NCBI RefSeq assembly: GCF_050920415.1
Contig: NZ_CP169309.1
Direction: 5' to 3' (one strand)
Source of the DNA: Escherichia coli
GTDB taxonomy: Bacteria; Pseudomonadota; Gammaproteobacteria; Enterobacterales; Enterobacteriaceae
DNA: 64,000 bases
This document shows positions 43,809 to 54,379 of this stretch, one piece after another (within the stretch, counting starts at the first letter, position 1; every line of letters starts with the position of its first letter). A program made the position numbers and the translations under genes. The notes below the pieces were generated by a model that saw only the letters and a list, made by a program, of their open reading frames with translations, made no database searches and was not told the origin of the DNA.

Positions 43809-44606
43809 AACTTACTCCTTAGCCGTTATCGTTTCGAACATGTCATCCTTTTCATTATTTACATCCCTGTCCGAATCGTTGTTCAATATAGTAAACGCCT
43901 ATAAGAACCTTGCCCTTCGTGAACTAATACGTCTATTAACACTAATCAATACTTCAGATTTATCCATCACGCACTCCATATATTGATCCTAAGTAAAATT
44001 CCTGGTTGTTATCAGATTGTAAGCTGCAAACAAAAAATTAACGTTTGCGGATTACTGCCCAAGAATAAGTTATCAATAACCAGTTTGTGATCTCTGAAGA
44101 ATATTACTAAAGTTAAAATGTAATCCGATTTAAATATCGAGTCTCCTTGTTTCGACTTAAGCTGGCAATTGGATTGCCAGCTTTCTTTTAACGCATTGAA
44201 ATTACCTGAGTAAATAACTCATTCATGTCTTCAGGTTTTTATATAGCGTCTGGAGACACGGATATTTATGCAATGTAATCAACGCCAGTTGCAAAAAAAT
44301 GAACCCGGATTACTTATTTAACCGCCCATAGCATCAACGTTTACGGAACTCTTTGTTCACTTTCCCACAGCACTTTTAAAACATTAAACCTGACTACGGA
44401 AAATATCAGCCATGATAATGTTTGAAATGGCTAATTTGCCATGCAATGAAAAAAATCAGATAAAATTCAGTAGGTTGAAATACTCATCAGCAGGTAATTA
44501 TTTCAATGATAGCGCGCAATTGATCTAAAATGCTGTGTAGCGGAGAGAGTATTAATTGGATCATAGTCACATCAAGTGACTATGATCCAGGTGGCAATAG
44601 GGATAA
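43809..44606. promoter_or_regulatory. Extended AT-rich gadE upstream regulatory region
   Basis: Roughly 800 bp of AT-rich non-coding DNA upstream of gadE; known in E. coli as a multi-promoter sensory region. Confidence 0.6.
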
Positions 44607-45179
44607 TTATTGCTTTTTAACAAACAAACTGGCGAAGCTGAACAGGCTAGCGGCGCTAAATATCAGTTCAATTCCCACTAGTGTGGAAACCAGCGTTACA
44701 GAAACCATCGGCGTTGCACCAAGGAATATCCAGGCAATGACGATATCCAGCACACCAATAACGAGCTGTAGCCAACTGCCTTTCATTGAACGCTGACGAT
44801 ACCAACTCATCAGACGAATAACTCCTGCCACACAGAACAAACCGGCAATAAATGCCGCAATGGCAAAAATGCCCAGCTCCGGTGCGCGGATGAAGAAATA
44901 GCCGATCAATAAATAGGCGACTGCGACGAGGAAACCGGATAATACCGGCCAGAAATTATGACTGCGGTTGCTGAATAGCCCGACAATAAGCGCAATGCCC
45001 GAGCAGATTAATAATGCACCCACTACTGTGCTTAAAATGTCGCCAGAGACGAACGGAAAACTGATACACAGCAACCCGACGATAAACAGCAGCACGGCAA
45101 TAAACTGGATTGCTCTGCGATGTTTTTTAAGCATCTCCAGATCAAACTTCAAAATTGTTGCCTTATCTATATATAACAT
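44607..45179 (-). CDS. hdeD: Acid-resistance membrane protein HdeD
   Basis: 190 aa, multi-TM. Confidence 0.9.
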   Translation of the reverse strand: MLYIDKATILKFDLEMLKKHRRAIQFIAVLLFIVGLLCISFPFVSGDILSTVVGALLICSGIALIVGLFSNRSHNFWPVLSGFLVAVAYLLIGYFFIRAPELGIFAIAAFIAGLFCVAGVIRLMSWYRQRSMKGSWLQLVIGVLDIVIAWIFLGATPMVSVTLVSTLVGIELIFSAASLFSFASLFVKKQ

Positions 45180-45433
45180 AGAACCACCCTATAAAATTAA
45201 GAAGAAAATCCCCTGCTATCAATCTATGCCAAAAACGCGTCTAAGAATGCAGTCGATTTAATAAAAATTTCCTAATTACAGTATCTGATGCATCTGTAAC
45301 TTATTGTATTGAAATAAAAATATCTGATTTTGATATTTTCCATCAACATGACATATACAGAAAACCAGGTTATAACCTCAGTGTCGAAATTGATTCGTGA
45401 CGGCTCTTTCACTTTATAGTTGAGGATATTACG

Positions 45434-45766
45434 ATGAAAAAAGTATTAGGCGTTATTCTTGGTGGTCTGCTTCTTCTGCCAGTTGTGAGCAATGCAGCGG
45501 ATGCGCAAAAAGCAGCTGATAACAAAAAACCGGTCAACACCTGGACCTGTGAAGATTTTCTGGCTGTGGACGAATCCTTCCAGCCAACTGCAGTTGGTTT
45601 TGCTGAAGCACTGAACAATAAAGATAAACCAGAAGATGCGGTTTTAGATGTTCAGGGTATTGCAACCGTAACCCCAGCGATCGTTCAGGCTTGTACTCAG
45701 GATAAACAAGCCAACTTTAAAGATAAAGTTAAAAGCGAATGGGACAAAGTTAAGAAAGATATGTAA
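45434..45766 (+). CDS. hdeA: Periplasmic acid-stress chaperone HdeA
   Basis: 110 aa with signal peptide. Confidence 0.93.
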   Translation: MKKVLGVILGGLLLLPVVSNAADAQKAADNKKPVNTWTCEDFLAVDESFQPTAVGFAEALNNKDKPEDAVLDVQGIATVTPAIVQACTQDKQANFKDKVKSEWDKVKKDM

Positions 45767-45881
45767 TTCCGGGAATACGTTACATCGTACTTCCTTGCAT
45801 ATTGAACAGGTAGGAATACCTTCTTCAAAAGCAGCTATTCCTTCTGTTCATATTTAATCTCTATATTGAATGGGTTACAAA

Positions 45882-46208
45882 ATGAATATTTCATCTCTCC
45901 GTAAAGCGTTTATTTTTATGGGCGCTGTAGCGGCTTTGTCACTGGTGAACGCACAATCTGCGCTGGCAGCCAATGAATCCGCTAAGGATATGACTTGCCA
46001 GGAATTTATTGATCTGAATCCAAAAGCAATGACACCGGTTGCGTGGTGGATGCTGCATGAAGAAACAGTTTATAAAGGTGGTGATACTGTTACTTTAAAT
46101 GAAACCGATCTTACTCAAATTCCTAAAGTGATCGAATACTGCAAAAAAAATCCGCAGAAAAATTTGTATACTTTCAAAAATCAAGCATCTAATGACTTGC
46201 CGAATTAA
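45882..46208 (+). CDS. hdeB: Periplasmic acid-stress chaperone HdeB
   Basis: 108 aa from ATG 45882 (MNISSLRKAFIFMGAVAALSLVNAQSALA...). Confidence 0.9.
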   Translation: MNISSLRKAFIFMGAVAALSLVNAQSALAANESAKDMTCQEFIDLNPKAMTPVAWWMLHEETVYKGGDTVTLNETDLTQIPKVIEYCKKNPQKNLYTFKNQASNDLPN

Positions 46209-46271
46209 TGGGGCACAAGTAAAAAGGAGTAGCAAGTTGAGCCATCTTGCTGCTCCTTTTTGCATTTTTAT

Positions 46272-46919
46272 ATGACAGCAGAATTTATTATACGTCTTAT
46301 ACTCGCGGCAATTGCCTGTGGCGCTATTGGCATGGAAAGGCAAATGCGCGGCAAAGGAGCAGGGTTACGCACACATGTATTAATTGGCATGGGAAGCGCC
46401 CTGTTTATGATTGTTTCGAAATATGGTTTTGCTGACGTGCTGTCTTTAGATCACGTCGGACTGGACCCCAGCCGTATTGCTGCTCAGGTAGTGACGGGTG
46501 TTGGGTTTATCGGTGCGGGTAACATTCTTGTTCGTAACCAAAATATTGTGGGTCTGACGACGGCAGCCGATATCTGGGTGACTGCCGCCATTGGTATGGT
46601 TATTGGTAGCGGTATGTACGAACTGGGTATTTATGGTTCAGTGATGACCTTGCTGGTGCTGGAAGTCTTTCATCAATTAACCTTCCGCCTGATGAATAAA
46701 AATTACCATTTACAGCTGACATTAGTGAACGGTAATACGGTATCAATGCTCGACTGGTTTAAGCAGCAAAAAATAAAAACGGATTTAGTTTCGTTGCAGG
46801 AAAATGAAGATCATGAAGTGGTCGCCATTGATATCCAGCTTCATGCCACGACGTCGATAGAAGATCTGTTGCGATTATTAAAAGGTATGGCAGGGGTGAA
46901 AGGCGTTTCAATTAGCTAA
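46272..46919 (+). CDS. yhiD: MgtC-family inner-membrane protein YhiD
   Basis: 215 aa from ATG 46272 (MTAEFIIRLILAAIACGAIGMERQ...). Confidence 0.88.
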   Translation: MTAEFIIRLILAAIACGAIGMERQMRGKGAGLRTHVLIGMGSALFMIVSKYGFADVLSLDHVGLDPSRIAAQVVTGVGFIGAGNILVRNQNIVGLTTAADIWVTAAIGMVIGSGMYELGIYGSVMTLLVLEVFHQLTFRLMNKNYHLQLTLVNGNTVSMLDWFKQQKIKTDLVSLQENEDHEVVAIDIQLHATTSIEDLLRLLKGMAGVKGVSIS

Positions 46920-46961
46920 TCTGTGTGGTAGCGAAATCACACTCGCCACCCTACTGGAAAT

Positions 46962-47492
46962 TCACACCAGATAATCAATATGCTGATGGCGTACCAACTC
47001 ATTGATCCGCTTAAGATTGAGGATCATCATGATATTGTGTTTATGGCAGTAGAACGTTTTTAGCGATATTTTCAGTTTCTCCAGAATATCTTCCGTTGTC
47101 ATTTGATTCGCAATGCAGCTTAGAACCTGATGCTGCTTGCGCGAAAGGGACACATCCGCTTCAGGCACAGAGCAGTAACTGCCATTGATGAGTGCGACAA
47201 AGTCGATGATGGTGATAGTTCGCGGAACAAAGGTCACCGGTACTTTCCCCAGGCAGCGTTTAATATTAAAGGGAGAGAAAATAATCACATGGACAGGTTT
47301 TAATCGTTCAATCTGAGTGAGCAAATTAGAATGAAATACATTATTCATTAATGTATCAATAATGACGAAGGCATGCTGATGCAACATTACGTCGATCTCT
47401 TCTTCGTTCTGTATATGAACGACATTACCTTTGCTCAGAATGTTTTTCATCGCAGTGAAGAACATCGTATCCCTGGTAATTATAAGAAACAT
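46962..47492 (-). CDS. dctR: LuxR-family regulator DctR (YhiF)
   Basis: 176 aa. Confidence 0.88.
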   Translation of the reverse strand: MFLIITRDTMFFTAMKNILSKGNVVHIQNEEEIDVMLHQHAFVIIDTLMNNVFHSNLLTQIERLKPVHVIIFSPFNIKRCLGKVPVTFVPRTITIIDFVALINGSYCSVPEADVSLSRKQHQVLSCIANQMTTEDILEKLKISLKTFYCHKHNIMMILNLKRINELVRHQHIDYLV

Positions 47493-47647
47493 AACCGACT
47501 CCTGGTGCGGACATTAACTTTATAATCAGTTTGCCAAAGGTAATTAACAGGACAGGGCTTATAATAATAATAGTTAGCTGGCTGTGTATTAATTTAATGT
47601 AATGCATGATGCAGATGCTGAGAAAGCATCTGCATCTCTCGGTGGTG

Positions 47648-48214
47648 TTATTTGACCAGCTCAGGTGTTACTTGACTCACCGCATTGGTGTAGTAAGGCG
47701 CGCCCCAGCCCGGTTCCGGCCAGAATGCACCATAGCCGTAATCCCACAGGTTATAGGTGGTATTAACCACTTCTCTCAAATGCCACACCTGGATTCCCTG
47801 CATATTCACTTCCAGGAAGTTATACGGGACTTTATTGATAAAGCCAGGTTGTTCACCCTGAATGGTACCGAGGATGGTAACAAAGTGATTACGATAGTTC
47901 ACTGGATCAAGGAAGCCGCTTTGTCTGGCGAGCAGTCGGCCCTGATAGTTGGCTTCAATATCAGGCTTCGCATAGCTATCCAACGGTAATACAGCGATTT
48001 CTAACAACGTATCCGTTTTGCCATTGATAACGTTGATAACCTTCCCGCCAAAGCGCGCTTGTTGACCAACATATAACCCCGGCTGGTTATGAACAGCAAC
48101 AAAACTTTTTTGAATATCAGGTTGGTTATTGCCTTTGATATTTTGCGGAATTGAACTACATGCGGCAAGCAAAAATGAAAGGCTGAGGATGAGTGCACCT
48201 TTTGTCATGTTCAT
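47648..48214 (-). CDS. slp: Starvation-inducible outer-membrane lipoprotein Slp
   Basis: 188 aa from the minus-strand ATG at 48214 (MNMTKGALILSLSFLLAACSS, lipobox LAAC); the listed ORF extends 73 codons upstream. Confidence 0.88.
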   Translation of the reverse strand: MNMTKGALILSLSFLLAACSSIPQNIKGNNQPDIQKSFVAVHNQPGLYVGQQARFGGKVINVINGKTDTLLEIAVLPLDSYAKPDIEANYQGRLLARQSGFLDPVNYRNHFVTILGTIQGEQPGFINKVPYNFLEVNMQGIQVWHLREVVNTTYNLWDYGYGAFWPEPGWGAPYYTNAVSQVTPELVK

Positions 48215-48459
48215 GTTACTATCCTTATCAACAAATATTAAAACCATAATAGATATTTCTTTATAGTTTTCATCTGATTCTGAGGCGATATGCCTGATAG
48301 TAACGTAAACCTGTCTGATGTTTATATCCCTTCTGTTTAGTTTTATTCTGTTAATTTTGGGGCGTGACATGAGTATCCATCGCCCCATAAAATAGCCTTT
48401 TTTTAAAGGTACATAAAATCTATTTTTATTCAATACTTATAAAGCGCTAATGTTCAATA

Positions 48460-49683
48460 TTATGGGGTTATATTCTGGTAATGATTTGATAAGCGAATTC
48501 TTTTGCCAGTTGGTATTTCTATTTCCACCCCATAATTTATAGTTTTTTCATCAGGTAGCGATCTCTTTAAATAAGGTGCGTATGACATTTTTTTAGGATG
48601 AAACGTATCGTGTTGAAATATTTCGAATTGATATTCAGACATTTCTGCCCATGTTTGAATTTTATTGTATCGGGAGAGTGTCGTAAAGGCTTTAACTTGC
48701 TTATAACATTGTTTTTGGAATTCTTGCTGATATTTTATTATGTCGTTGTATGAAAGATTATTTACCCTGGTTTCTAATAATTCTATTATTGTCGAAGCAA
48801 TTTCCGCTTTTGCTCTTAAAGAGTTGTCATTAATGGTTAATAATGTTGAAAATAAACCATTGATTTGTTTGTCAACATATTGTTCATCTTTATGTAATTT
48901 TGTGATAGGGTTTTCCTTATGTGAAAAAATAGTATCAAATAAATTTGCGTCAGTGAAGTTTACATTAAGTAGATCTTCGAAATAAAACCTTGACAAGGTT
49001 AGAACGAACCCGGACAGGTCCTGTCCTGTCATATTGAAATCAATAAAGTTGGTTCCAGCAAAGACTTTCATCCTGTTTTCATTTTTACTGTGCTCAATAT
49101 ACAACCTTGTCATTTTTTGGTACAAGCGTTGAATATCTTTTATATCAGTTGGTAGATCAGTTCGTTGCCCAGAAAAATTTTTATTTTCGGAAGAAACGGT
49201 TTGGACACTGAATCTTACTGGTATTCCCTCTTCTACGAGAATTTTAGTTATGATTGGCTTATTGGGCTTAGGATTAAAGACAACAATGATTTTAGATTCA
49301 GAGTTTTTATTCTTTTCGTATCTAATGTTATTAATCTGATTAAGTATTGATTGTGTCTGTTGCGTAAGTGGTGTCGAACTTATCGTTTCAATGTTATTAA
49401 TAAGTTTTACAAGTTGAGCCACAACTTTTGAGTAGTCTGCATTTGTATATGTGGTGTTCGTGTGGCACGCATTAATTTGTTGGAGTTGTTGTTTCGCTAA
49501 ATCAAATTGTTCAGCGTTATATCCTTCTTCAGACAATGAAAAATTAACGGGTTGCTGTTCTTCCTGATTATCACAAGGCCACATCGGTGTGTTTGGTGTT
49601 TTAACATTGTCGGTATCTGTTGTGCGGTTATAAATATCGCCGTGATATGTGTTTATCATACCTGGGGTAAAGTCAATTGACAT
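48460..49683 (-). CDS. AT-rich hypothetical protein, 407 aa, possibly an uninterrupted yhiS ortholog
   Basis: Low-GC ORF rich in N, K and Q; segment [41 protein letters not shown] resembles pentapeptide-type repeats. Sits between slp and the ars region, where K-12 has an IS5-disrupted yhiS. Confidence 0.6.
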
Positions 49684-50263
49684 AACATTCCTTATTGTTC
49701 ATCTATTTCGCTAAATTTTTGCAAATCGGAGAATTAGAACAGGAATGGATTTTCTTCTACGCGGAAATAAACACAATGCGTCATATCTTCCTGATATAAT
49801 TACCTTTAACTTCCCTTTCATTTCCACCCGGTAATATTTGTGTATAAAAAAAGGGCAGTGATAGTATCGTAAAGGAAAACATTAACAACTATCAAAAAGC
49901 GCTCATTTTAAAAAGTTATGATGTTCTCCGATAGTGTGTGAAGTGATATTTTTGTGATGTTTTAGATGTGTAATAATGAACCAGGTTGAAGTGTATTTAA
50001 AAATGTGTTGTATTGGCGACTGAAATCTGCCCTTTAAAAGGGGGGATAGCACTGAGACAAAGAGGCATTGCTTCTCCGATAAAATGTCAGAGAAGCATGA
50101 TTGCGTGGTGATTGTCGATTGATGACTTACTGACGGATCCGTCATCATTCTCAAAGCATTAGTTAAGTTATTTGTGATTTTTAAGGATTATCCTATCTAT
50201 GATTTTCTACTCAGAAGGATAAGACACTCACAATGCTCCTTATAGTTTACTGCTGGCATCTAT

Positions 50264-51277
50264 TTAAAATAGCATTTGAGTCAAATAGCCCATCAAGATA
50301 GCCATACCTAAGATAACCGTCAGGAATGCAACTATCATCGGTATTCTGAACATTGATTTAAGTAATATCACTTCCGTCAGGCTTGCTCCGGCACTGCCGA
50401 TGATTAATGCCATTAATGCTCCCGGACCCATTCCTTTTGTCATCAGAACAGATGCCAGAGGGATAACCGCCTCTGCCCGGATATACAGCGGGATTCCGAC
50501 AACGGCGCTCAATGGGATGGCGAAGGGATTATCTGCCCCTGCATGAGCGGCAATCCACTCTGAGGGAATAAAGCCATAAATAAAAGAGCCTATTAATACC
50601 CCTAACAAAAGATATGGCAGTACATCTTTAAACTGTTGCAACGCATCTTTGGTGGCTAGTTTTATGGGATTAATACTTACCACAGCTTTGGTACTGCAAC
50701 AGTTTACTACAGGTTTCTCAATGGCTTTAGCCGCTGGACTACAGCAACTCACTTTTATTGGCGTATAAGTCGTCCCCGGCGAAGTTTTGGCTGGAGAGCA
50801 ACAATTTGCTGATGAGCTTTTACTGGCAATGATATGACGTTCAAATCTCAGAGAATCCAGGATAATACTGGCAAGTACGGAGACGCCGGCGGCGATAATC
50901 GCGTACAACAAGGTAACTTTCCAACCAAAGGTCACCCACATTAACCCGACGATAATGGGATTAAGTAACGGTGAAACAAATAAAAAAGTGAGAGTCGGAC
51001 CAAACCCGGCTTTCGCTGACAACAATCCACGTAGCATGGGTATTGTCGAGCAACTACAGAACGGGGTAACGGCTCCCAACAGAGCAGCCAGGAGATAGCC
51101 TCTCCCTTTTCTGGCCCCCATCATCTGCTGGATTTTATGGTCTGGCACCTTTTGTCTTATCAGGCTGACACCGGCACTAATCACTATAAACAGCAAAGAA
51201 AGCTCGACGGCGAGAAACACAAACATCTCTGCGGCATCTTGCAGCATCGCAAGCCAACTACTCATAAGTAACCTCAT
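50264..51277 (-). CDS. Cysteine-rich polytopic permease of the DUF318/ArsP-like type (putative metalloid or organoarsenical efflux permease)
   Basis: 337 aa with multiple TM segments; TPFCSCSTIP motif; central hydrophilic loop with three vicinal Cys pairs (NCCS, SCCS, NCCS). Divergent from an ArsR-family regulator. Confidence 0.7.
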   Translation of the reverse strand: MRLLMSSWLAMLQDAAEMFVFLAVELSLLFIVISAGVSLIRQKVPDHKIQQMMGARKGRGYLLAALLGAVTPFCSCSTIPMLRGLLSAKAGFGPTLTFLFVSPLLNPIIVGLMWVTFGWKVTLLYAIIAAGVSVLASIILDSLRFERHIIASKSSSANCCSPAKTSPGTTYTPIKVSCCSPAAKAIEKPVVNCCSTKAVVSINPIKLATKDALQQFKDVLPYLLLGVLIGSFIYGFIPSEWIAAHAGADNPFAIPLSAVVGIPLYIRAEAVIPLASVLMTKGMGPGALMALIIGSAGASLTEVILLKSMFRIPMIVAFLTVILGMAILMGYLTQMLF

Positions 51278-51289
51278 TGAATAAAACTA

Positions 51290-51311
51290 TATTTCCAGAA
51301 TAATCGAAATA
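51290..51311. promoter_or_regulatory. Candidate operator, palindrome 1, in the permease/regulator divergent intergenic region
   Basis: TATTTC-N10-GAAATA dyad (tatttccagaataatcgaaata). Confidence 0.4.
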
Positions 51312-51324
51312 AAGTTCAGATCAA

Positions 51325-51350
51325 GATATTTCTGGTATTATCGAAATATC
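51325..51350. promoter_or_regulatory. Candidate operator, palindrome 2
   Basis: GATATTTC-N10-GAAATATC with perfect 8-bp inverted arms, 37 bp centre-to-centre from palindrome 1 and about 25 bp upstream of the regulator ATG. Confidence 0.45.
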
Positions 51351-51372
51351 AACCAGACAGAGGGGGTGACAC

Positions 51373-51693
51373 ATGCAATTGGAAGAGGTCGCTAAGGCAC
51401 TGAAAGAGTTAGGTCATCCGACCCGTTTGTTCATATTTAAGCATCTGGTCAAAGCGGGGGAACAAGGTTTGCCGGTCGGTGAGTTGCAAAAGCAGCTTGG
51501 GATACCCGGCTCTACACTCAGTCACCATATTTCAGCACTGGTATCGGTAGGGTTGGTCAAACAAAACCGTGAGAGTCGGACGCTGATGTGTGTTTCGCAA
51601 TACGCAATGCTGGAAGCGATAATTGAATTCTTACGTGAGGAGTGCTGCGTAAACAGCAAAACAGATAGCGAAGGAGCCACGAAGAACAAATAA
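51373..51693 (+). CDS. ArsR/SmtB-family winged-helix transcriptional regulator (accessory, second ArsR-type gene)
   Basis: 106 aa; LGHPTRLFIFKHL...PGSTLSHHISALVSVGLV is a typical ArsR HTH; C-terminal cysteines (LMCVSQ...EECCVN) rather than the helix-3 CVC site; AGGGGG SD before the ATG. Confidence 0.75.
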   Translation: MQLEEVAKALKELGHPTRLFIFKHLVKAGEQGLPVGELQKQLGIPGSTLSHHISALVSVGLVKQNRESRTLMCVSQYAMLEAIIEFLREECCVNSKTDSEGATKNK

Positions 51694-51708
51694 GGGGGCA
51701 TATCCCCC
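51694..51708. terminator. Compact bidirectional terminator between the accessory regulator and arsC (convergent)
   Basis: gggggcatatccccc hairpin flanked by T-rich sequence on both strands in a 20-bp convergent gap. Confidence 0.45.
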
Positions 51709-51713
51709 TATAG

Positions 51714-52139
51714 TTATTTCAGGCGTTTACCCGCTTCATCAACCACTTTCTCGCCATCTTCCTTGGTGAACGCGCCTTGTTGCGCATCTGGCAGAATTTC
51801 CAGCACGACTTCTGAAGGGCGGCACAGGCGAGTTCCCAGCGGCGTCACCACAATCGGGCGATTAATCAGAATCGGGTGCTGAAGCATAAAGTCGATTAAC
51901 CGATCGTCAGTAAATTTATCTTCTGCAAGGCCCAGTTCCTCATACGGCTCGACGTTTTTACGCAACAGCGCGCGTACGGAAATCCCCATATCGGCAATGA
52001 GTTTGACCAGCTCATCGCGCGTTGGCGGTGTTTCCAGATAATAGATAATGGTCGGTTCTGTACCGCTGTTGCGGATCATCTCCAGCGTATTACGCGACGT
52101 GCCGCAGGCCGGGTTGTGATAAATAGTAATGTTGCTCAT
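51714..52139 (-). CDS. arsC: Arsenate reductase ArsC (glutaredoxin-type)
   Basis: 141 aa, MSNITIYHNPACGTSRNTLEMIR... Confidence 0.93.
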   Translation of the reverse strand: MSNITIYHNPACGTSRNTLEMIRNSGTEPTIIYYLETPPTRDELVKLIADMGISVRALLRKNVEPYEELGLAEDKFTDDRLIDFMLQHPILINRPIVVTPLGTRLCRPSEVVLEILPDAQQGAFTKEDGEKVVDEAGKRLK

Positions 52140-52151
52140 ATCAGTATCTCA

Positions 52152-53441
52152 TTACGATGTGAAAGAGAGACGAAGCGCCAGCGCGGTAAGCGTCACAAAC
52201 AGCACCGGCAGGGTCATGATAATCCCTGTACGGAAGTAATATCCCCAGCTGATAGTCATATTCTTCTGCGAAAGTACGTGCAGCCATAGTAGCGTTGCCA
52301 GGCTACCAATCGGTGTAATTTTCGGCCCCAAATCGCAGCCAATCACGTTGGCATAAACCATCGCTTCTTTGATGACACCAGATGCCGTGCTGCCATCAAT
52401 GGACAACGCGCCAACCAGTACCGTCGGCATATTGTTCATAATAGAAGAGAGGAAGGCGGTGAGGAATCCGGTGCCGAGTGTCGCCGCCCACAGGCCGTGA
52501 TCCGCCAGCACGTTGAGTACTCCAGAAAGATATTCCGTTAGTCCGGCATTGCGCAGGCCATAAACCACCAGATACATGCCGAGCGAGAAGATGACAATCT
52601 GCCAGGGGGCACCGCGCAGCACTTTACCCGTATTAATCGCATGACCGCGTTTAGCGACGGCAAATAATATCAGCGCGCCCACTGCCGCAATGGCGCTTAC
52701 CGGAATGCCGAGCGGTTCCAGGACGAAAAATCCCACCAGCAGAAGCAGTAAAACAACCCAGCCAGTTTTGAAGGTGGCAGGATCTTTAACCGCTTCTACG
52801 GGAGATTTAAGCAGCGCCATGTCGTAGTTCTGCGGAATATCTTTGCGGAAATAGAGATGCAACATCACCAGGGTAGCCAGTATTGCAGCGATATCCACCG
52901 GCACCATCACCGAGGCGTATTCGCGAAAGCCGAGGCTAAAGAAATCTGCCGAAACGATATTCACCAGATTGGAGACAATAAGCGGCAGGCTGGCGGTATC
53001 GGCAATGAATCCGGCCGCCATAACAAACGCCAGCGTAGTGCCTTTGCTGAACCCTAAAGCCAGCAGCATGGCGATGACAATCGGCGTCAAAATAAGCGCC
53101 GCGCCATCATTGGCAAACAGGGCCGCAACGGTAGCACCGAGCAGGACAATCCAGGTAAACAGCAAGCGACCGCGCCCATTGCCCCAGCGTGAGACGTGCA
53201 GCGCCGCCCATTCAAAAAAGCCGGACTCATCCAGCAGCAGGCTGATGATAATGACGGCAATAAACGCAGCCGTCGCGTTCCAGACGATATTCCACACCAC
53301 CGGAATATCGCCCGGATGGACCACGCCAGTAACTAACGCCAGTACGGCGCCCAGTGTCGCACTCCAGCCGATGCCTAAACCTTTCGGCTGCCAGATAACC
53401 AATACGATGGTCAGGACAAAGATAGCGCCCGCCAGTAACAT
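52152..53441 (-). CDS. arsB: Arsenite/antimonite efflux pump ArsB
   Basis: 429 aa from the minus-strand ATG at 53441 ([17 protein letters not shown]...); the listed ORF is 7 codons longer. Confidence 0.92.
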
Positions 53442-53495
53442 CATGCCTCCTGGATAAAACACATTCGAATATTCATATGTGTTTAGATAAATTTT

Positions 53496-53849
53496 TTAAC
53501 TACAAATATTCTTACTGTCTGCGGAACAATTTTGTCTGGCGAGGTTACGGACAATCACCTGAACCTTTTCCTGTTCGCATCGCCAGGCCTGCTCAATAAT
53601 TTTCGCCGCCCATGCTGGAATATGCGGCGATAAACGGTAATGAACCCACTTTCCTTGCTTGCGGTCCAGCAATAGCCCACTTTCACGCAGTAATGCCAGA
53701 TGGCGGGAGATCTTGGGCTGCGACTGATCGAGGGCAGTGCACAGATCGCAGACGCATAACTCTCCCAGTTCGCTGAGCAGTAAAACGATGCCCAGACGGG
53801 TTTCATCGGCAAGAATTTTGAAGAGTTGGATGGGTAACAGAAATGACAT
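53496..53849 (-). CDS. arsR: Arsenical resistance operon repressor ArsR
   Basis: 117 aa with HTH and ELCVCDLC metalloid-binding motif. Confidence 0.93.
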   Translation of the reverse strand: MSFLLPIQLFKILADETRLGIVLLLSELGELCVCDLCTALDQSQPKISRHLALLRESGLLLDRKQGKWVHYRLSPHIPAWAAKIIEQAWRCEQEKVQVIVRNLARQNCSADSKNICS

Positions 53850-54000
53850 ATTGCGCTCCTGATTGTTGCACTTAGTGTCTCTCTTCGAAGCGGATAAGTC
53901 AAAAACATATATGTTTTAACGAATGCATAAGTGCAAAAGTAAGTAATAGGTGTGAATTTTGAGTTGGGTATTCATTTGAAAGGAAGGCTGAATCAGGATG

Positions 54001-54083
54001 TAAAAAAACCGACTTTGCGTCGGTTTTTTACTCTTCAGCCAGAGTTGGTGGCTCTGGCTGGAGTGAGAATGCCCACATCTAAC
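54001..54083 (-). ncRNA. agrB: AgrB small RNA (antisense regulator of dinQ)
   Basis: Repeat unit with terminator hairpin aaaaaaaccgactttgcgtcggtttttt at 54002-54030; segment complementary to the dinQ 5' region; spacing to arsR matches K-12 as I recall. Ends are approximate. Confidence 0.5.
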
Positions 54084-54234
54084 GGTTCAATACTATTAGC
54101 CAGTGGCTAACATTGCAAGCGTTAGCGATTTCTTCAGCTGGCGAAGGGACAGTTTGCTATACATGGTGGTGAAAGAGGATTGATATACTTTCATCGGGTC
54201 GCTGCCGTACCAAGCCTTGTCCGAATCCGGACGT

Positions 54235-54319
54235 AAAAAAACCGACTTACGTCGGTTTTTTTACTCTTCAGCCCTGAGTTGGTGGCCCTGGCTGGAGTGA
54301 GATAGCCATCATCTAACAC
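54235..54319 (-). ncRNA. agrA: AgrA small RNA (paralog of agrB)
   Basis: Second copy of the same unit, with hairpin at 54234-54262. Ends are approximate. Confidence 0.5.
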
Positions 54320-54379
54320 ATCAATGCTAATACCATACTGAAACTATTGCAAGGACATGCTGGTTTTATAACCCGCAAG

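Follow-up and report, generated by a model that had tools for sequence, protein, structure and literature searches.

The closest described counterpart of the gene reported here is yhiS of Escherichia coli K-12 (b3504, UniProt P37635), which is listed as a pseudogene whose protein still awaits characterisation (PMC8170033) and exists as two fragments, yhiS_1 and yhiS_2, split by the insertion sequence (IS) IS5/insH-11. The same gene, Z4907 in EDL933, has been described as an 'unknown gene' that adjoins the acid fitness island, the published borders of which start at slp and leave yhiS outside (PMC9729726). The arsC/yhiS and insH-11/slp intervals of K-12 both appear in a list of 78 'promoter islands' and both are H-NS-positive, the counterpart of the yhiS upstream region being island 3648929_470 (PMC3661553); the geometry requires that the greater part of the 3′ yhiS fragment falls within the insH-11/slp interval. 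In addition, yhiS was named among high StpA-affinity sites in a 2026 preprint (bioRxiv 10.64898/2026.02.10.705075). The published K-12 work describes the locus as transcriptionally quiet DNA to which H-NS and StpA bind. Here we analysed a 64,000-nucleotide stretch of E. coli DNA (the window) in which an open reading frame (ORF) of 407 codons plus stop, with an ATG start, occupies positions 48460-49683 on the minus strand. Judged by alignment and gene order, this ORF is an intact ortholog of K-12 yhiS. We think it probable, on balance, that it belongs to a silenced and dispensable, but selectively maintained, Escherichia cassette encoding a non-enzymatic binding protein.

The K-12 fragments lie between arsC and slp in strain W3110, where they are annotated as two 'hypothetical protein' pseudogene pieces with IS5 between them. 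The window ORF aligns to both, with 89.1% nucleotide identity over nt 1-744 and 90.2% over nt 747-1224, and removing IS5 and one copy of the CTAA duplicated at its flanks from the K-12 gene leaves 1,224 nt, equal in length to the window ORF. The order of ars genes (either arsC or a permease/ArsR module that is described below), yhiS and slp, with yhiS and slp on the same strand, is shared by the window, K-12, O157:H7 and 20 other loci, and a 78%-identical protein carries the name 'YhiS' in a database source. A first-pass annotation of the window had proposed a candidate intact yhiS between slp and the ars region, and had stated that the K-12 gene is split by an IS5 absent from this position. 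The alignment to both fragments and the synteny bear out the first proposal. The second also holds, as W3110 carries IS5 within yhiS and the junction alignment found no IS element in the window gene; the empty target, a strandless site at 48937-48940 marked by BLAST breakpoints at 48937 and 48940, reads ATAA in the window.

Matches to a 2.1-kb query around the ORF were found in 5,417 of 5,426 complete E. coli genomes, chromosomal every time. One genome, E. coli MFDS1022581, matched the query at 100%, and there the gene is annotated as the hypothetical protein WP_000020655.1. Intact yhiS is already catalogued, as a hypothetical protein in RefSeq and in thousands of genomes. Relative to K-12 yhiS, with which it shares locus and length, the window copy is uninterrupted and represents a rare other allele class, about 10.5% divergent in nucleotide sequence from the K-12 class; unlike in K-12, a permease/ArsR-type module sits between yhiS and arsC.

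The frame itself is unlikely to be open by accident. At the ORF's own composition (33.3% GC) the per-codon stop probability is 0.073 and the chance of 407 open codons is about 4e-14. Rival ORFs in other frames over 48460-49683 reach just 51-81 amino acids in the ORF list of the window, and a Shine-Dalgarno sequence, AAGGAA, can be read at 49688-49693 on the minus strand, 4 nt 5′ of the ATG. The uninterrupted ORF of the first-pass annotation is in this way confirmed, as are the low GC content and the N/K/Q-rich product that it described: GC is 0.30-0.37 across ~48200-50200 and 0.44-0.58 either side, and the protein contains 9.6% N, 9.1% T, 8.8% I, 7.4% K and 7.1% Q. The predicted product of 47.4 kDa (pI 6.3) is soluble and hydrophilic, with a grand average of hydropathy of -0.64. 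Because the peak 19-residue hydropathy across the whole protein is only 0.92, YhiS has neither a membrane segment nor a Sec signal peptide.

The yhiS locus forms, by nucleotide comparison, an island of deep, mosaic divergence of about 1.7 kb. Identity of the window to K-12, O157:H7 and a pig isolate (HCP6S3) is 98-100% through slp and 77-95% from ~48350 across the ORF and its upstream region. The transition takes about 100 bp near 48350; sliding identity to the comparison locus L007 falls from 1.00 to 0.81 between 48343 and 48438, with a like drop against K-12, O157 and HCP6S3. The 3′ intergenic part of the divergent cassette (48350-48459, minus strand) therefore has a sharp boundary at ~48350 with the conserved slp upstream DNA. 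Against L007, slp is 99.8% identical with a synonymous divergence (dS) of 0.008 and dctR 99.6% identical with a dS of 0.009, whereas yhiS is 77% identical with a dS of 0.60. The synonymous divergence of the cassette is thus up to ~70-fold that of the adjacent genes, which may merit specialist attention. On the other side of the gene, the AT-rich upstream region at 49684-49980 (minus strand, delimited by the extent of the BLAST match) has its homolog in the arsC/yhiS intergenic region of K-12, is 72-86% identical to L007 and diverges between allele classes in step with the gene. The first-pass annotation had treated the whole 580-bp gap at 49684-50263 as an AT-rich non-coding region preceding yhiS. 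Only the proximal ~300 bp stand as homologous to the K-12 yhiS upstream DNA, the rest being the flank of the permease/ArsR module absent from K-12, and the gap is non-coding save for a TTG-started ORF of 83 amino acids. This ORF, at 49903-50154 on the minus strand, straddles the end of the K-12 homology (~49980), is also unannotated in the matching RefSeq genome and is probably spurious.

Comparison of 23 sequences gave 20 haplotypes and, in the identity matrix, at least four allele classes, with 63-100% amino acid identity. The majority class is A, the type of K-12; class B, to which the intact window allele belongs, is rare (1 of the 5,426 complete genomes matches the 2.1-kb query at ≥99%); class C was found in loci L006, L013 and L018, and class D in L007. 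The four-gamete test indicates at least 45 recombination events within the 1.2 kb of yhiS, and by block-wise identity the L008 gene is a mosaic of B and A. Searches for direct, inverted and tandem repeats around the cassette returned only chance-level short matches, and no flanking repeats suggestive of site-specific cassette exchange. In the neighbouring genes the ratio of nonsynonymous to synonymous divergence (dN/dS) is 0-0.1 with dS of 0.01-0.14, apart from one arsC pair with a dS of 0.28. We also observed that dctR (46962-47492) and arsC (51714-52139) have a dS of ~0.13 against K-12, several-fold above that of slp (0.04), so the window's whole ars-to-acid-island neighbourhood appears somewhat divergent, not yhiS alone. 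Overall we find the population pattern mildly surprising, which does not imply that yhiS is exceptional among other silenced E. coli ORFans.

Substitution patterns argue that the yhiS reading frame was maintained by past selection across these old allele classes. In comparisons with the window allele dN/dS is 0.33-0.65 at dS of 0.08-0.60, and the median over all allele pairs with dS >0.05 is 0.40. When the observed substitutions were placed at random with their spectrum kept, in 20,000 simulations, 5-11 stop codons were predicted for the deeper comparisons, and the real alleles are open. The probability of no stop under random placement was 0.0035 against class A and 0.0008 against class C; in the class D comparison none of the 20,000 simulations stayed open (<5e-5). 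The intact classes differ in length by one 12-nt insertion and one 3-nt deletion, in frame, and by no others. As stops are avoided beyond chance and dN/dS is ~0.4, selection has kept the frame over the history separating the classes.

A map of constraint along the gene, built from polymorphism ratios (pN/pS) along the codons and from invariant columns in a 92-allele alignment, shows a conserved core and conserved termini joined by two nearly unconstrained linkers (all coordinates on the minus strand). Codons 1-30 (49594-49683) encode a conserved polar N-terminus, which is no Sec signal peptide, with a pN/pS of 0.21 at normal pS and invariant columns. Codons 31-105 (49369-49593) evolve fast and close to neutrality, with a pN/pS of 0.55-1.0, and it is here that the class D allele carries a 4-residue insertion and a 1-residue deletion, both in frame. 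The most constrained core lies at codons 181-300 (48784-49143; pN/pS 0.16-0.36) and comprises a set of repeats and a block of invariant columns. Constraint is lowest at codons 331-375 (48559-48693; pN/pS 0.8-1.4) and returns at the C-terminus, codons 376-407 (48463-48558), where invariant columns give the pattern EK.INYGVEI...RIRLS.H.QNI.P and pN/pS is 0.38 over codons 376-405.

Maintenance across classes is accompanied by frequent loss. We took 30 complete genomes at even steps down the ranking of matches to the 2.1-kb query and classed them by annotation and sequence. An intact 407-residue yhiS was present in 11 (37%, rough 95% interval 22-54%). The remainder comprised eight genomes with an annotated frameshift, two with a 371-residue truncation of the O157:H7 type, three with an IS insertion (IS5 twice, IS1203 once), five with an internal deletion at ~nt 392-1294 (one verified, four inferred from a like coverage pattern) and one with a near-complete, IS1-associated deletion. 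In the allele alignment every frameshift falls in a homopolymer run, at nt 367, 755-761, 966 or 1089. The commonest site is a T-run at 48920-48932 (minus strand), T6-C in the window and T7 in intact K-12-type genes, which is shortened from T7 to T6; a 61-mer carrying the T6 frameshift matched up to 1,114 of the 5,426 genomes at ≥99%, of which ~355 gave partial alignments only, so that the lower bound is ~760. A 61-nt query for the intact T7 haplotype gave no match, probably through low-complexity filtering, so the T6 count has no symmetrical count of intact alleles beside it. Loss of one nucleotide from the A-run at nt ~1089 (48590-48600, minus strand) produces the 371-residue O157:H7-type truncation, and the exact O157-type 61-mer occurs in 296 of the 5,426 genomes. 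Less than 80% of the 2.1-kb query is covered in about 1,100 genomes, which agrees with the sample. Some frameshifts in nanopore-only assemblies could be sequencing errors, but the counts are large and haplotype-specific, so most are likely to be real. The gene is dispensable: ~60% of complete E. coli genomes carry a broken copy, through several kinds of lesion. An intact copy is ordinary, occurring in about a third of E. coli genomes.

This level of loss raises the question of whether yhiS is simply a decaying remnant, once functional and now neutral everywhere, with the window frame being an allele so far spared disruption. The disruption of 19 of the 30 sampled genomes by at least seven kinds of lesion would fit such a history, as would a dN/dS some five to ten times that of the neighbouring genes, the two segments with a pN/pS of ~1 and the fact that K-12, O157:H7 and the NCTC9022 type (internal deletion) all live without intact yhiS. 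Nevertheless, the avoidance of stops between intact classes, most clearly against classes C and D, would not be expected of it, and dN/dS is well below 1 over residues 1-30, 181-300 and 376-405. The 407-residue alleles also form the largest protein clusters, of 8,964 and 2,855 member sequences. We consider the remnant explanation unlikely, although the points against it show past, not proven present, constraint.

Within the protein, the sole recognisable element is, from its repeat pattern, a genuine but short pentapeptide-repeat stretch at residues 208-257 (48913-49062, minus strand). In a register display a hydrophobic F, M or L occupies every fifth position over 10 units, most of which have D or N at the preceding residue; this exceeds the eight consecutive five-residue units (L/F at the centre, D/N ahead of it) taken as the minimum for the pentapeptide-repeat family. 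These codons have a pN/pS of 0.22-0.24. A 13-allele profile matched only one entry among PDB sequences, the pentapeptide-repeat protein Rfr (2f3l; E=0.007). Against 1.84 billion representative proteins the same profile recovered one full-length cluster and many short fragments of yhiS, the remaining matches being long environmental pentapeptide-repeat proteins aligned through query positions ~205-280 only (E 4e-9 to 1e-3). The Pfam family PF00805 missed its threshold, with an i-Evalue of 6.2 at residues 237-254, and none of the 13 alleles matched it at E≤0.1. YhiS therefore shares with pentapeptide-repeat proteins (PF00805; Rfr of Cyanothece) the hydrophobic residue at period five and the D/N before it, but its repeats span just ~50 of 407 residues. 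The central pentapeptide-like repeats of the first-pass annotation are accordingly present, but short; their number would suffice for ~2.5 turns of a right-handed quadrilateral beta-helix.

No other domain emerged. Searches of Pfam (with the single sequence and with 13 alleles), NCBIfam, PADLOC and PHROGs yielded no significant family assignment for YhiS, in agreement with the earlier statement that its function is unknown. NCBIfam returned no family even at E≤1, the sole PADLOC-DB match was to Cmr5 (one allele, E=0.26), with none for two other alleles, and the domain searches found no nuclease, NTPase, TIR, Sir2 or membrane effector domain. AlphaFold2 run on the 13-allele and 92-allele alignments gave mean predicted local distance difference test (pLDDT) scores of 38 and 34, which are unusable, and no beta-helix appeared in the models. 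Pentapeptide proteins that act as DNA mimics are ~200 residues long and nearly all repeats, which makes such a mechanism unlikely for YhiS. Mimicry of the Qnr/MfpA/AlbG kind was rejected for this protein, given too few repeats and no match to a Qnr or MfpA model.

In the collections searched, yhiS occurs only in Escherichia (E. coli, Shigella and Escherichia sp.), as a cassette of one gene with 33% GC. In a search of 5.8 billion proteins all 120 source-named matches among those listed came from E. coli or Shigella. The most divergent cluster, that of class D (63% identity, 410 residues), includes 'Escherichia sp.' records and a 'MULTISPECIES [Escherichia]' entry. A phage collection contained no yhiS match, and the three matches in a plasmid collection are all chromosome-sized records of 4.8-4.9 Mb, presumably mislabelled chromosomes. 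The suggestion that the DNA was acquired horizontally gains support from the 33% GC, from the lack of any homolog found outside Escherichia and from the H-NS-positive upstream region of K-12; no donor was found. The AT content at yhiS, well above that of the flanks, fits xenogeneic DNA silenced by H-NS and StpA, occupancy being reported for the K-12 locus only. Like the H-NS-silenced 'promoter islands' beside K-12 ORFans (Panyukov and Ozoline 2013), the homologous DNA of the window has 30-37% GC, but a simple sigma-70 scan of the yhiS region found no excess of promoter-like sites, with 11 against 10.7 expected from shuffles. Rfam gave no match over 44000-54000 at E≤0.1.

The reading we favour, that of a silenced but selectively maintained cassette, would work as follows. 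YhiS would be a non-enzymatic binding module built around the predicted beta-helix core, made only once H-NS/StpA silencing is relieved and useful in some niches only. The whole ~1.7-kb cassette may be exchanged among Escherichia lineages, with subsequent intragenic recombination giving rise to the deep mosaic alleles. In lineages that do not need yhiS, the AT-rich homopolymer runs and IS targets would inactivate it quickly. Several points weigh against this account. A dN/dS of 0.4 together with ~60% loss is equally expected of a gene sliding into non-function, and the silencing data come from K-12, where yhiS was already split. The beta-helix is based on a repeat pattern below the Pfam threshold that AlphaFold did not reproduce, and 'binding module' is what would be assumed by default of any protein that shows no catalytic motifs. 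Two scans, moreover, give only weak evidence that yhiS is absent from other species: a one-genome-per-species scan with two narrow peptide patterns found no confirmed relative, and a species-representative scan with a DNA pattern was empty, its ATH at codon 9 having excluded ATG and GTA alleles, such as those of the window and NCTC9022.

A bolder version, which we regard as speculative and rather unlikely, is that YhiS takes part in antagonistic interactions, either as a non-Sec effector (for example of the largely decayed E. coli type III secretion system 2, ETT2) or as a sensor of phage or competitor proteins. The four ancient classes, shared with Escherichia sp. isolates, would then be under balancing selection in E. 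coli, and the losses would mark lineages without the partner.

Taken by itself, export as an effector seems doubtful. YhiS would leave the cell by a non-Sec route (for example type III, through ETT2 or the locus of enterocyte effacement) and its repeat core would bind a host target, in the manner of PipB/PipB2, SopA and NleL/EspX. The secretion system would have decayed in most lineages, which would account for the repeated loss of yhiS, a corollary just as doubtful. Several type III effectors of enterobacteria contain pentapeptide repeats, and the NCBIfam models of repeat-bearing effectors match generic repeat proteins that YhiS also matches. A polar, conserved N-terminus of 30 residues, followed by ~75 nearly unconstrained residues and then the conserved repeat core, is a suitable layout, and the protein lacks a signal peptide or membrane segment. 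Like those effectors, YhiS carries its repeats within a larger unique protein without a Sec signal, and its gene is AT-rich, H-NS-bound (in K-12), species-restricted and often a pseudogene. Unlike them, YhiS shows no HECT-like or other effector domain. No PipB, PipB2, SopA-family or HECT-effector model matched it even at E≤1, no SopA, NleL or PipB2 structure appeared at E≤10 in the PDB profile search, no chaperone or secretion gene lies nearby and the N-terminus has several acidic residues.

We find it still harder to see yhiS as a conflict gene, acting on its own against phages or between bacteria and with its polymorphism sustained by frequency-dependent selection, and judge this highly improbable. 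Deep allele classes at a fixed chromosomal site with conserved flanks, mosaic recombination within the gene and frequent loss of an AT-rich, silenced single-gene cassette are what it would predict. Yet PADLOC and PHROGs gave no match, none of the effector domains sought in YhiS was found, and the phage and plasmid collections held no mobile-element copies. What varies is also the allelic divergence of one gene, not the presence or absence of alternative systems.

The first-pass annotation had placed the DNA contiguous with the acid fitness island, which holds in that yhiS adjoins slp at the island's edge, although the published borders put it outside. K-12 and O157:H7, both acid-resistant model strains, carry a broken yhiS. 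A role as a working island member co-regulated with slp-dctR is largely refuted and barely credible: yhiS does adjoin slp-dctR on the same strand, with no terminator-like site in a scan between yhiS and slp, but YdeO overproduction in K-12 induced slp-dctR and not yhiS (PMC4222967), the published island starts at slp (PMC9729726), and slp is ~99% conserved against 77-95% for yhiS. The YdeO test is a weak one for yhiS because the K-12 gene is disrupted. Membership of the island (slp to gadA), with induction through the EvgA-YdeO-GadE circuit, was likewise rejected, the gene being outside the published border, YdeO-unresponsive and variable.

The surroundings of yhiS also vary between strains. 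Between yhiS and arsC, at 50264-51693, the window encodes a Cys-rich permease of 337 residues (TPFCSCS and three CCS repeats), divergent from an ArsR/SmtB regulator of 106 residues; the permease has sub-threshold NCBIfam similarity only, to SO_0444-type Cu/Zn efflux and SaoE transporters. K-12, O157:H7 and many further strains do not have this module and carry ~313 bp of unrelated DNA in its place. It is intact in the window and split by IS2 in the otherwise identical MFDS1022581. At the junction at 46920-46961, yhiD directly adjoins dctR in both the window and K-12. A chuS-chuA heme-uptake cluster is inserted at dctR/yhiD in O157:H7, NCTC9022 and loci L007-L010 and L014, and the window is without chu there. 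Structural variation extends to the ars side of the locus as well, because arsR and arsB are lost in NCTC9022 (L004, 7524-7859) and A30 (L014, 3933-4697), where arsC is followed almost directly by dinQ; some strains with chu beside dctR are also without arsR/arsB. Between arsR and gor, near dinQ, reciprocal BLAST identified two ~110-bp copies with ~85% identity, at 53990-54098 and 54219-54332, in every strain compared. These probably represent agrA/agrB, the antisense RNA repeats at dinQ.

An intact yhiS by itself changes nothing; the point of interest is a frame preserved across allele classes and yet lost in most genomes. If slow decay is the true explanation, yhiS is one more silenced ORFan. 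If balancing selection on an interaction protein is true, yhiS would offer a tractable case of a conditionally acting orphan peculiar to Escherichia, and recombination at the acid fitness island's edge could also be usefully tracked with it.

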